From a virus (Duplodnaviria > Heunggongvirae > Uroviricota > Caudoviricetes): 47,623 bases of DNA. Positions 39,799 through 41,947 of this stretch are shown in pieces. Within the stretch, counting starts at the first letter, position 1; each line of letters begins with the position of its first letter. The DNA is taken from IMG/VR virus record IMGVR_UViG_2541047816_000005, positions 1-47,623 of that record; one strand, written 5' to 3'. Made by a program: the position numbers and the translations under genes. Below the pieces are notes generated by a model. It did not search any database, was not told the DNA's origin, and saw only the letters and a program-made list of their open reading frames with translations.

Positions 39799-40242
39799 AT
39801 GTTAAATGATAAACATGACTCTTATTCCGTAAACTCTCTGTTGATTTGTGCTCAAGCGGCACTATTAGGCGGTACCGCTTCAAACCATGACGTCATCAAC
39901 CTCTTAGATGTTGCACAAGACATCATCTCTTCAACTATGAATTCCTTTACAGATAGTAGCGCTCCCGGCGCTAATGTTGATTTATTTACCAAAGAAGTTA
40001 GCGCTAGTAATTCCCCAGCATTATCTTTCGGTCAACGTATTCTCCAAGCGCGTAAATCAGCAAGTCTTCAACAACATCATATTGCCAGCGGTGCTGGAGT
40101 GACTGTTCAGGCTGTTTCGTTATGGGAAAATGACTCAGCAATTCCTACTTGCGACAAAATTATCCCATTGGCAAATCTTCTTGGCTGCGATCCAATGTGG
40201 TTACTGACTGGTGCTTATAAACAAAATCAGGAGGAAGCATAA
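39799..40242 (+). CDS. HTH (XRE-type) protein with N-terminal extension
   Basis: GAGGTGA RBS 6 nt before ATG 39799; C-terminal QRILQARKSASLQQHHIASGAGVTVQAVSLWEND resembles XRE-family HTH. Confidence 0.55.
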   Translation: MLNDKHDSYSVNSLLICAQAALLGGTASNHDVINLLDVAQDIISSTMNSFTDSSAPGANVDLFTKEVSASNSPALSFGQRILQARKSASLQQHHIASGAGVTVQAVSLWENDSAIPTCDKIIPLANLLGCDPMWLLTGAYKQNQEEA

Positions 40243-40243
40243 G

Positions 40244-40435
40244 ATGAAAATGTTCAAAGGCCTCACCAACGAACCGGAAACAGCTTTTCATCACATTGCC
40301 GTACTGCTTGAAGCGGGGTTAATCATTTCGGCTTCCGGTGATGAAGAATGTGATGAACTTTCGGATGATATCTTTTTACTGGCACAACAATACGCCAGAA
40401 GCGCATGCGATGCATTTAAGGAGCAAAGAACATGA
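40244..40435 (+). CDS. small hypothetical protein
   Basis: AGGAGG RBS 9 nt upstream; 63 aa. Confidence 0.4.
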   Translation: MKMFKGLTNEPETAFHHIAVLLEAGLIISASGDEECDELSDDIFLLAQQYARSACDAFKEQRT

Positions 40436-40623
40436 TAACTCCATTAAATATTCTTGAGAAAGTGGCAGCACAAATAAAAGAGAATACATCCATGCTTGAA
40501 TTTATATTTAAGAATTCGCCTGATTCAGGAGAGACAGACGATTATTTATGTTGCCTCATTCGCTCCATGAATAAAACCTGTGAAATGGCTTACGCGTATA
40601 TCGACACACTGCGCAACGAATAA
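40432..40623 (+). CDS. small hypothetical protein
   Basis: 63 aa ORF overlapping the previous stop (ATGA). Confidence 0.35.
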   Translation: MITPLNILEKVAAQIKENTSMLEFIFKNSPDSGETDDYLCCLIRSMNKTCEMAYAYIDTLRNE

Positions 40624-40807
40624 AGAAAACTCAATAAACAATCACCCATAAAAACATAACGGCCTCTGGTCGGGAATTTCCACAACCTGAAAATGGTGGT
40701 GATGCATGAAAAACAGAAGTGCTTATAAAACCGCATTATTAATGGCTAATGCAGGATACTGGTCAGTTGCAATACTGTTTCTCAGAAAAGCATACGGGAA
40801 ATAACAA

Positions 40808-41167
40808 ATGACACATGAACCCATTAATACATATCGTCGCCGTATAGCTGTTGCGGCACTCCATCGAATAAAACGTAAAACAGGTGGTAATCTGCTTATT
40901 GTTGACCTTCCGGATGGGAACATTACGACCATAGAAATAACTGAACAGTTTATAAACCAGTTGCTGTTACGCTTCGAAGGTATTACCCGTGGTGAATTGG
41001 GCCGGGTGGAGGGTGAAACCGAAATCCACACTGCATACCAGAATGCTATCGGGATTAATCAACATACTGAATACCTGACTGAAACCGGAAAGTTAATTAT
41101 AGACAACCTTTTTCAAGAGGTTATTGATTACGCGAAAGAAAAATATATCAGCGGAGGAATTAACTGA
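40808..41167 (+). CDS. hypothetical protein (119 aa)
   Basis: ORF in early-left operon; no family recognised. Confidence 0.4.
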   Translation: MTHEPINTYRRRIAVAALHRIKRKTGGNLLIVDLPDGNITTIEITEQFINQLLLRFEGITRGELGRVEGETEIHTAYQNAIGINQHTEYLTETGKLIIDNLFQEVIDYAKEKYISGGIN

Positions 41168-41382
41168 TGGCTAATTTATCCCCTGTATCTGTTGTGCACG
41201 AAAAAGTGCAGATCGTTATGACAATTGAAAATGGCCAAGTCACAGGTGTCTGCAAAGTCCGCGATGGCGAGCTGATTGCCAGCATGGATACATTCATACG
41301 GCTGGCAGAAAGAGCGGGGTATCAGATAACAGCACCTGCTCAGGAGGAAACCGGTGGCATTAACAGCAACACGCATTCCTGA
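41167..41382 (+). CDS. hypothetical protein (71 aa)
   Basis: ORF overlapping the previous stop. Confidence 0.35.
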   Translation: MANLSPVSVVHEKVQIVMTIENGQVTGVCKVRDGELIASMDTFIRLAERAGYQITAPAQEETGGINSNTHS

Positions 41383-41554
41383 GCGGATCCACCGGCAGGC
41401 ATTGCAGGTCCTGTTGTTGTACCGATGCCGACGGATATTTCCGCATCGGATATCTCAGTCTGAAGGTTAACCGTCGCTGGCGGCTGTTATCGAAAGACGA
41501 CGGCCGGAACTGGGAAGTAATGAGTCATGAACGTTATTCGGGAGAAATAAAGAA

Positions 41555-41947
41555 ATGATCGACAACCGCACCGCCAGCGCCATTGACCAGGCATTACAGA
41601 AACATGATACACCCGTCGGCCCGTTATTTTTTGTAACACGCCACGGAAGAACAAAAAAATGCCTCACTCGAAAAACGGCAATTCGTTACCTGGCCTTCTT
41701 TATGACCACCCGCGCTTTTGAACGTTCAGGATTCCGACAACGCTATCCTGACAAGCGTTTTATCTTCAACAGGAATGAGATATGGAAACGTGGAGAATCA
41801 ACCACAGAGTATACCCGCGCACACCAGCGAACAATCAGACGACTGCGCAGACTCATCGCCAGGAAACAGTATACAGAAAAATGGTTCAGAAAATATGACA
41901 CATGGAGCGCCGGATATTACGAACTGATGGCAACAAAACCATTCTGA
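41555..41947 (+). CDS. basic hypothetical protein (130 aa)
   Basis: Arg/Lys-rich ORF; no family recognised. Confidence 0.4.
   Translation: MIDNRTASAIDQALQKHDTPVGPLFFVTRHGRTKKCLTRKTAIRYLAFFMTTRAFERSGFRQRYPDKRFIFNRNEIWKRGESTTEYTRAHQRTIRRLRRLIARKQYTEKWFRKYDTWSAGYYELMATKPF

Follow-up and report, generated by a model that had tools for sequence, protein, structure and literature searches.

The window analyzed here, a 47,623-nucleotide stretch of DNA from the Caudoviricetes (IMG/VR record IMGVR_UViG_2541047816_000005), is identified by its sequence as an Escherichia coli prophage, and a cluster of six small open reading frames (ORF1 to ORF6) lies on its plus strand downstream of the repressor gene. 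Our leading explanation, to which we assign about an even chance, is that this interval is the promoter-proximal third of a repressor-controlled operon of the pL type in a prophage related to phi467 and phiP27, and that it is composed of a regulatory block A and an accessory block B. According to this explanation, the genes of the operon would be off in the lysogen and would be expressed on infection or induction, and they would form two translationally coupled blocks: block A would consist of ORF1, ORF2, and ORF3, and block B of an overlooked small ORF, ORF4, ORF5, the remnant of a ParE_like gene, and ORF6. The positions of these elements are listed in Table 1.

Table 1. Positions of the regulatory elements, genes, and gene remnant in and around the cluster
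Feature	Position	Strand	Description
OR-type operator dyads	39151..39173		cro/repressor intergenic region; TTAGCAACGTGCTAA overlapping GCTAACATTAGCA
OL-type operator (predicted)	39714..39735		GCAAATATTAGCATTTTGCTAT; inverted copy of the OR dyads, 81% over 21 nt
pL-like sigma-70 promoter (predicted)	39735..39763	+	TTGTCA-17-TACATT, before ORF1; consensus match only
Leader hairpin	39758..39798	+	13 bp; dG −21.3 kcal/mol, z −4.6
ORF1	39799..40242	+	147 aa; Xre/Cro-CI helix-turn-helix (HTH) regulator, HTH residues 77–143; phrog_4836 (3e-57)
ORF2	40244..40435	+	63 aa, acidic (pI 4.4); stand-alone protein homologous to the N-domain of ORF1-type regulators; phrog_4587 (2e-33)
ORF3	40432..40623	+	63 aa, acidic (pI 4.6); stand-alone protein homologous to another, second class of regulator N-domain; phrog_6882 (8e-40), also a phrog_27579 match
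Unannotated conserved small ORF	40706..40804	+	32 aa; MKNRSAYKTALLMANAGYWSVAILFLRKAYGK; basic ends, hydrophobic core; stop 3 nt before ORF4
ORF4	40808..41167	+	119 aa; phrog_1737 (5e-53); conserved core gene; confident model without structural match
ORF5	41167..41382	+	71 aa; phrog_340 (2e-24); optional module between ORF4 and ParE_like
ParE_like (PF24732) toxin-like pseudogene	41354..41558	+	14-bp deletion, frameshift near 41446
ORF6	41555..41947	+	130 aa, very basic (pI 11.0); phrog_1886 (2e-59); second core gene, long C-terminal helix
Downstream operon continuation	42008..43020	+	62-aa membrane protein (42008–42196) coupled to SPFH/Band-7 lipoprotein (42193–43020); Pfam and PHROG

The distribution of one dyad supports the pL-type placement. 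In 47.6 kb, the sequence TTAGCAnnnTGCTAa has two sites: one at 39151, in the intergenic stretch that separates the cro-like gene from the repressor gene, and another at 39721, abutting the −35 element of the promoter predicted 36 nt upstream of ORF1. Because the dyad recurs only at OR and on the −35 element of the ORF1 promoter, this arrangement supports the view that the cluster is the start of a pL-type early-left operon, which would run on to xis and int. When TTAGCAnnnTGCTAA was searched for with up to two mismatches, exactly two matches were found in the window, one in the OR region and one in the OL region. A 21-nt inverted similarity also links the two regions (I3 among the inverted repeats, D9 and D10 among the direct repeats), and three of the five copies of TTAGCA in the 47.6 kb fall within them. 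Of the hallmarks of a lambdoid pL, OR-type operators on a promoter located 3′ of the repressor gene were found at the level of sequence, while N and nutL were not: Pfam and PHROG searches returned no N-family gene, and the plus strand of the leader and the cluster holds no boxA-like site of the kind used in nut antitermination. N/nut antitermination was rejected because of the missing boxA in the leader.

The gene order fits into the same picture. A 3.15-kb stretch around the cluster is 100% identical to five complete E. coli chromosomes, and in E. coli strain B2.3 the prophage ends with the integrase gene adjoining mlrA. On the plus strand, the order is the repressor gene, the ORF1–ORF6 cluster, genes for a membrane protein, an SPFH lipoprotein, and an ORF6N antirepressor-like protein, several small genes, xis, and int. 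The repressor gene (39231–39686, plus strand) encodes 151 aa with an HTH domain and a DicA-like C-terminal part, and the Pfam profile search found no S24 peptidase domain in its product. To the left of 39137, the minus strand carries the cro-like HTH gene, a small gene that occupies the position of cII, and genes for a DEAD-box helicase, a toprim primase, and a Q-type antiterminator; like the cro-like gene, the lysis genes, the replication genes, and Q are on the strand opposite to the cluster. The nearest sequenced phages are phi467 and, for the SPFH part, phiP27 and Stx2 phages. The preliminary description placed the cluster between the repressor and an "SPFH pair." It does lie directly 3′ of the repressor gene, while the pair turned out to be a 62-aa membrane protein and a single SPFH lipoprotein, since the gene that follows encodes the ORF6N protein and there is no second SPFH gene.

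The six small ORFs (63 to 147 aa) of the preliminary description are all present on the plus strand, and all of them are coding sequences in the PGAP annotation of the 100%-identical genomes. The translational coupling proposed for several of them is borne out by tight junctions: one nucleotide separates the stop codon of ORF1 from the ATG of ORF2 (TAA-G-ATG), and overlaps are found between ORF2 and ORF3 (ATGA), between ORF4 and ORF5 (TGATG), and between the ParE_like remnant and ORF6 (ATGA). Each ORF matches a PHROG family over its full length (Table 1); the families are labelled "unknown function," except for phrog_4836, which is labelled "CII-like regulator." The region is AT-rich (41% GC) and contains many alternative short ORFs, which might raise the suspicion that the six frames are open by chance and that the spacer holding them is non-coding or regulatory. 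To examine selection, codon sequences were compared among related loci, starting from 52 viral contigs carrying ORF4. The ratio of nonsynonymous to synonymous polymorphism (pN/pS) was 0.19 for ORF2, 0.14 for ORF3, 0.33 for ORF4, 0.55 for ORF5, and 0.23 for ORF6, and the ORF lengths were conserved among 32–56 related loci. The conservation, whose absence had been named beforehand as grounds for refutation, is therefore seen for ORF2 to ORF6 (pN/pS 0.14–0.55). Furthermore, homologues with about 50–60% identity occur in other genera, and the AlphaFold2 models are confident (predicted local distance difference test scores of 91.6 for ORF4 and 82.9 for ORF6). These conservation data, together with the PHROG family found for each ORF, refute the chance-frame explanation, whose probability we regard as negligible; by this evidence, the ORFs are real genes under purifying selection.

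It was also found that the cluster is not made up of six ORFs alone. A conserved ORF of 32 codons was found in the 184 bp that separate ORF3 from ORF4, and a frameshifted ParE_like gene in the 172 bp that separate ORF5 from ORF6. The 32-codon ORF has its own Shine–Dalgarno sequence and was found in all 13 sequence variants of the spacer, and its pN/pS is 0.24 in frame as compared with 1.17 and 0.46 in the other frames. Its product looks like a small membrane peptide, judging from the composition given in Table 1. A terminator-like hairpin lies within this ORF on the opposite strand (40754–40731), but an antisense promoter was not found. The same gap was also considered as the site of a DicF-like RNA or another known RNA, and this was rejected: there is no Rfam match, the structure z score is −0.2, and the gap encodes the small protein.

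The evidence for the regulatory nature of block A begins with ORF1. The earlier statement that none of the ORFs resembles a recognised family does not hold for this protein, which carries a five-helix HTH domain scoring above the Pfam gathering thresholds: HTH_3 (PF01381) gave 33.4 bits (cut-off 23; 4.6e-8; residues 78–140), accompanied by HTH_19 with 31.6 bits (cut-off 30.2). The domain resembles P22 C2 (4e-6) and 434 Cro (4e-3), and ORF1 also matches the DicA and RstR models. Given this Xre-type HTH domain, ORF1 is predicted to bind DNA. Its N-terminal domain (N-domain) is helical, varies with the immunity type, and is swapped together with the immunity repressor: in the 42 loci compared, which represent five immunity types, each repressor type goes with one N-domain type (1:1), and a single conserved sequence makes up the HTH part. 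This places the mosaic boundary in the linker of ORF1. For the immunity type of the window, the boundary is slightly further to the right; locus L051 joins an N-domain of the window's type to the common HTH (L and P numbers denote related loci and proteins).

Another element of block A is the leader hairpin that precedes ORF1. Its 5′ arm spans the −10 hexamer and the expected transcription start, and its 3′ arm spans the Shine–Dalgarno sequence of ORF1 (GAGGTG) and ends 1 nt before the ATG. At the same position, other immunity types carry hairpins that are unrelated in sequence (z −3.8 to −5.6), each of which overlaps the predicted −10 element or transcription start plus the Shine–Dalgarno sequence. 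No terminator was found after the repressor gene. A transcript started at pL would lack the 5′ arm, and one that arrives by read-through from the repressor gene would have the complete hairpin, so that only pL transcripts would be translated. Accordingly worded in terms of function, the hairpin would mask the ribosome-binding site of ORF1 solely on read-through transcripts, and ORF1 translation would be limited to transcripts initiated at pL. We infer a fold-back control of translation by analogy with IS10 and IS50, whose transposase is subject to fold-back inhibition of translation on read-through transcripts. In both cases, the 5′ arm precedes or spans the promoter and start site that belong to the element itself, and the 3′ arm hides the ribosome-binding site, such that only transcripts from the native promoter can be translated. 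The present case differs in that it concerns a phage operon, that the mechanism is read from sequence, and that the hairpin is not found in all immunity types.

As for the remaining members of block A, sequence comparisons showed that ORF2 and ORF3 are HTH-less homologues of N-domains that are fused elsewhere to the same HTH domain. The whole length of ORF2 aligned with the L046 regulator's N-domain (BLASTP, E 3e-11, 36% identity), and ORF3 matched the N-domain of the L020 protein with two HTH domains (E 2e-10, BLASTP). An exhaustive HMMER search of 1.84 billion representatives, for which ORF2 and ORF3 were joined as the query, returned 48 proteins. The ORF3-like domain occurs alone in 13 proteins of 55–96 aa, N-terminal to one or two HTH domains in P0273, P0275, P0289, and P0296, and also ahead of helical domains of other kinds. 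For the ORF2-like domain, both stand-alone copies and fusions to an HTH domain (P0278 and P0303) were found. In the E. coli group, a stand-alone ORF2-like protein is encoded between the regulator and ORF4 in 56 of 56 loci, and the regulator's own N-domain belongs to the ORF2-like family in about 31 of them. Paralogy among the ORF1 N-domain, ORF2, and ORF3 within the window was tried and rejected: BLASTP returned nothing, and no relation emerged when the ORF2-type and ORF3-type alignments were compared profile to profile, either mutually or with ORF1. The homology claim is thus restricted to the N-domains of other phages' regulators.

Because of this fusion pattern, the data suggest that the small acidic ORF2 and ORF3 act with Xre-type regulators through protein contacts. 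They may be partners or dominant-negative decoys of ORF1-type regulators, and such contacts might tune early-left expression or the lysis–lysogeny circuit. Decoys of this logic are known among the eukaryotic Id proteins and microProteins, and among the phage antirepressors that bind repressors. ORF2 and ORF3 resemble them in being small homologues of the non-DNA-binding domain of a transcription factor, encoded beside that factor. They differ in that the partner role is read from sequence patterns and the regulator N-domain of the window is not detectably related to ORF2 or ORF3; moreover, they have no sequence relation to the known antirepressors Ant, Tum, and Gifsy GfoA.

A different function can be proposed for the same proteins. 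ORF2, ORF3, and ORF5 may be anti-defence proteins, such as inhibitors directed at restriction or at other immunity systems, and their similarity to N-domains may reflect a shared small helical scaffold, not a shared function. The genes are small, mosaic, and predicted to be expressed early, their products are acidic (pI 4.4–5.1), and such genes are typical of anti-defence loci beside an HTH regulator; in acr-aca loci, small anti-defence genes are located next to an HTH regulator. However, no match to a known anti-defence or defence family was obtained, the PADLOC matches being generic HTH only. The ORF2-like protein is also a constant companion of the regulator (the 56 loci above), not a variable cargo, and fusions to HTH domains are frequent. 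We therefore judge the anti-defence explanation to be quite unlikely.

As a separate observation, a further helical domain (...LNSW..DIG.C...) was noticed in L063 2196–2627, P0271, P0287, and P0295. It is C-terminal to the HTH domain in Enterobacter prophages, and other proteins carry it C-terminal to the ORF3-like domain; shuffling has brought the region's small helical domains together in many combinations.

Turning to block B, its toxin-like element is the ParE_like gene. In VR50 and JB2, an intact relative of 72 aa is located between ORF5 and ORF6, and the JB2 allele matches ParE_like PF24732, a domain of the RelE/ParE superfamily, with 60.4 bits (cut-off 24.4; E 1.7e-16) over profile positions 2–65 of 67. 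In the window, the frame is broken by a 14-bp deletion between CGGATA direct repeats, and PGAP annotates a frameshifted "ParE family toxin-like" pseudogene in an identical genome. As an intact gene is found in 51 of the 53 related loci, the inactivation is a recent event, brought about by a slippage deletion. Three gene combinations were found in relatives: ORF4-ORF5-ORF6 without ParE_like in Salmonella prophages, ORF4-ParE_like-ORF6 without ORF5 in Enterobacter prophages, and ORF4-ORF5-ParE_like without ORF6 in phi467-type phages. A homologue of ORF4 is directly upstream in each of 20 ParE_like loci, which come from 20 species, and ORF5 and ORF6 are each present in 12. By these comparisons, ORF4 and ORF6 are the conserved core of block B. 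For their folds, Foldseek searches of the PDB, and additionally of BFVD for ORF4, found no significant relatives (best E 0.6 for ORF6 in the PDB, 0.26 for ORF4 in the PDB, and 0.06 for ORF4 in BFVD; template modelling score ≤ 0.38), and among solved structures no significant sequence relatives of ORF4, ORF5, ORF6, or ParE_like were found. ORF5 has a weak similarity to the C-terminal part of the antirepressor family phrog_4792.

These features make it conceivable that block B is a decayed type II toxin–antitoxin module for addiction or abortive infection, with ParE_like as the toxin and ORF5 and/or ORF4 as the antitoxin; such a module would stabilise the prophage or defend the lysogen. The domain is intact in relatives, one phage record labels its copy "mRNA interferase HigB," and the toxin-like protein is basic (pI 11.5) and overlapped by acidic upstream proteins (ORF4 and ORF5 are both acidic). 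ORF4 is always upstream, the loss of a toxin with its neighbours kept is a common pattern of decay, and a ParE system in a prophage immunity region has a precedent in paaR2-paaA2-parE2 (PMC8630535). Against this explanation, the gene is part of a lytic operon that is repressed, and not of a constitutive one under autoregulation; ORF4 and ORF5 yielded no DNA-binding antitoxin domain; ORF5 and ORF6 are each missing from some ParE_like loci; and PADLOC gave no match. The reverse of the decay in the window is seen in strain Al Ain of E. coli O157, where a frameshifted ORF4 adjoins an intact ParE_like (L088 13709–14067), and relatives in virulent phages and in an integrative and conjugative element (ICE) occur without an obvious paired antitoxin. 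As an obligate antitoxin of ParE_like, ORF5 was rejected, given the Enterobacter loci with ParE_like and without ORF5 and the Salmonella loci with the converse. We consider the toxin–antitoxin explanation unlikely. Because of the repressed lytic operon, the missing DNA-binding antitoxin, the relatives in virulent phages and ICE, and the Al Ain frameshift, a role of block B during lytic growth is favoured over a classical addiction module, with low confidence; block B would then act on the host, and a host-directed role of ORF4 to ORF6 is possible.

Some further observations were made on ParE_like. Its relatives include gp07 of the virulent coliphage Sortsne (L085 1798–2019; 40% identity) and a copy on a Pantoea plasmid/ICE (L087 1762–2010), which share the motif WRLLSRD.G..W...SHE.YN. 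The Pantoea copy adjoins ParB/DUF2857/STY4528 genes, and the neighbours of both are unrelated to ORF4, ORF5, and ORF6. The 5′ end of ParE_like always overlaps the 3′ end of the preceding gene, which is ORF5 here (41354–41382) and ORF4 in Enterobacter (L063 3783–3811); owing to this overlap, the two proteins end alike, being read in the other frame (...GG.NSNTHS and ...GTDSDTNS).

The preliminary description assigned the cluster to the place where lambdoid phages keep functions of the kil, sieB, and ral type. Its positional part is upheld, as the cluster is at the start of a repressor-controlled operon, and its functional part has gained no support from homology. If the ORFs were host-takeover or superinfection-exclusion effectors, each with a host target and unrelated to phage regulation, their position in an early-left operon under repressor control would be right, and their small size, mosaicism, and presence or absence among relatives would be expected. 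ORF6 is very basic, the 32-aa small ORF product and the 62-aa protein resemble membrane proteins, and nothing contradicts an effector role for ORF4 and ORF6, which have no known fold. On the other hand, for none of the ORFs was a match to Kil, SieB, Ral, DicB, CIII, or Gam found in Pfam (E ≤ 0.1), NCBIfam, or PADLOC. In addition, ORF1 is a predicted DNA-binding regulator, and ORF2 and ORF3 are homologous to regulator domains, so that at least half of the cluster appears regulatory. Consequently, we regard a purely effector function as rather improbable.

Several points weigh against our explanation of the cluster as a pL-type operon with a regulatory and an accessory block. The promoter matches the consensus at 9 of 12 positions, and the promoter, operator, and hairpin are all sequence predictions. 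Two immunity types (L019 and L020) lack the leader hairpin, the predicted start is inside, not beyond, the 5′ arm in two others, and the inverted repeats could instead be DNA operators. The 1:1 link between N-domain and repressor could reflect plain physical linkage, as they are about 110 bp apart. The N-domain of the window's ORF1 has no detectable similarity to ORF2 or ORF3, and therefore a direct interaction of ORF1 with ORF2 or ORF3 in this phage is without homology support. As for block B, the Al Ain frameshift and the ParE_like relatives without an obvious antitoxin count here as well.

A more ambitious version of the same explanation may also be considered: the cluster might constitute an undescribed, modular, protein-level control layer, in which the ORF1-type N-domain is cognate to the immunity type, ORF2-like and ORF3-like proteins are partners or decoys, the hairpin folds back, and ORF4 and ORF6 are new folds that work with the ParE-like protein during lytic growth. 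The decoys might also be directed against the regulators or repressors of co-resident heteroimmune prophages. We hold this version to be improbable. If the decoy or partner idea is true, there would be an extra control layer in the induction circuits of phiP27/Stx-type prophages, spread across a large group of enterobacterial prophages including phiP27/Stx-type phages; otherwise, the cluster is an ordinary accessory gene set.

The organization can be compared with known prophage systems. In CP-933P of E. coli O157:H7, the promoter PL933P is located downstream of the repressor gene, has OR-like operators, and is followed by small ORFs without an assignable function (Jurenas et al. 2021, PMC8630535). 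The window shares with lambda pL and PL933P the divergent cro/repressor switch and the second promoter 3′ of the repressor gene with OR-like operators, and with PL933P also the small downstream ORFs without assignable function. It differs in that no N gene or nut/boxA was found and the first gene encodes an Xre-type HTH protein, in that the repressor has no S24 peptidase domain, and in that the replication module is of the helicase and primase type, not O/P. In the three-component system paaR2-paaA2-parE2 and in the window, a ParE-fold gene is found near the immunity region of a lambdoid-type prophage, with small acidic proteins ahead and an HTH regulator associated. The gene here is, however, a PF24732 ParE_like of 72 aa, not a canonical ParE, and a pseudogene in the window; it belongs to the repressed pL operon, not to the repressor operon, and no PaaA-like antitoxin accompanies it.

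The Qin prophage of E. coli K-12 carries the operon dicA-ydfA/ydfB/ydfC-dicF-dicB. As in the window, a DicA-like repressor is followed there by a repressed operon of very small ORFs on the same strand, and the window's repressor and ORF1 each match part of the DicA model. The window differs from Qin in having no DicF RNA (Rfam) and no match to the DicB or Ydf families. We know of no function assigned to YdfA, YdfB, or YdfC.

The early-left operons of temperate phages are the site of genes for lysogeny control, host takeover, and inter-phage competition, and nearly all such genes in prophages of pathogenic E. coli are listed as "hypothetical." The cluster is an early-left accessory region of the kind typical for temperate enterobacterial phages; its proteins are all in the databases already as hypothetical, and our literature search with the Pfam, PHROG, and RefSeq protein accessions of the cluster returned nothing. 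What is new here is a recognised regulator, a decayed toxin-like gene, an overlooked small ORF, the operator and hairpin predictions, and the description of ORF2 and ORF3 as HTH-less copies of regulator domains. The cluster is now divided into testable units: a two-module mosaic regulator, its HTH-less companions, a decaying toxin-like gene, and two proteins of unmatched fold.

Finally, some observations concern genes outside the cluster. The 62-aa hydrophobic protein and the SPFH/Band-7 protein are coupled by ATGA, and the latter has a lipoprotein signal (...LVGC) and is labelled "serine protease" in several Stx2 phage records. The 189-aa protein encoded at 43810–44379 (plus strand) weakly resembles the central beta-clamp domain of DNA polymerase III (Pfam E 0.005). 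It is labelled "beta clamp domain-containing protein" by PGAP and is an unusual cargo for an early-left operon. The induction of a prophage with a peptidase-less repressor presumably requires an antirepressor, and the sole candidate seen is the ORF6N protein (about 43064–43813), which is itself encoded within the repressed operon. A perfect LexA box, CTGTACATAACTACAG, is located at 484–499 (plus strand), directly 5′ of an 82-aa ORF at 515–763 (plus strand) whose resemblance to DinI was judged by eye. The idea that a LexA-controlled antirepressor induces the non-cleavable repressor was rejected, since this only perfect LexA box precedes the DinI-like gene.

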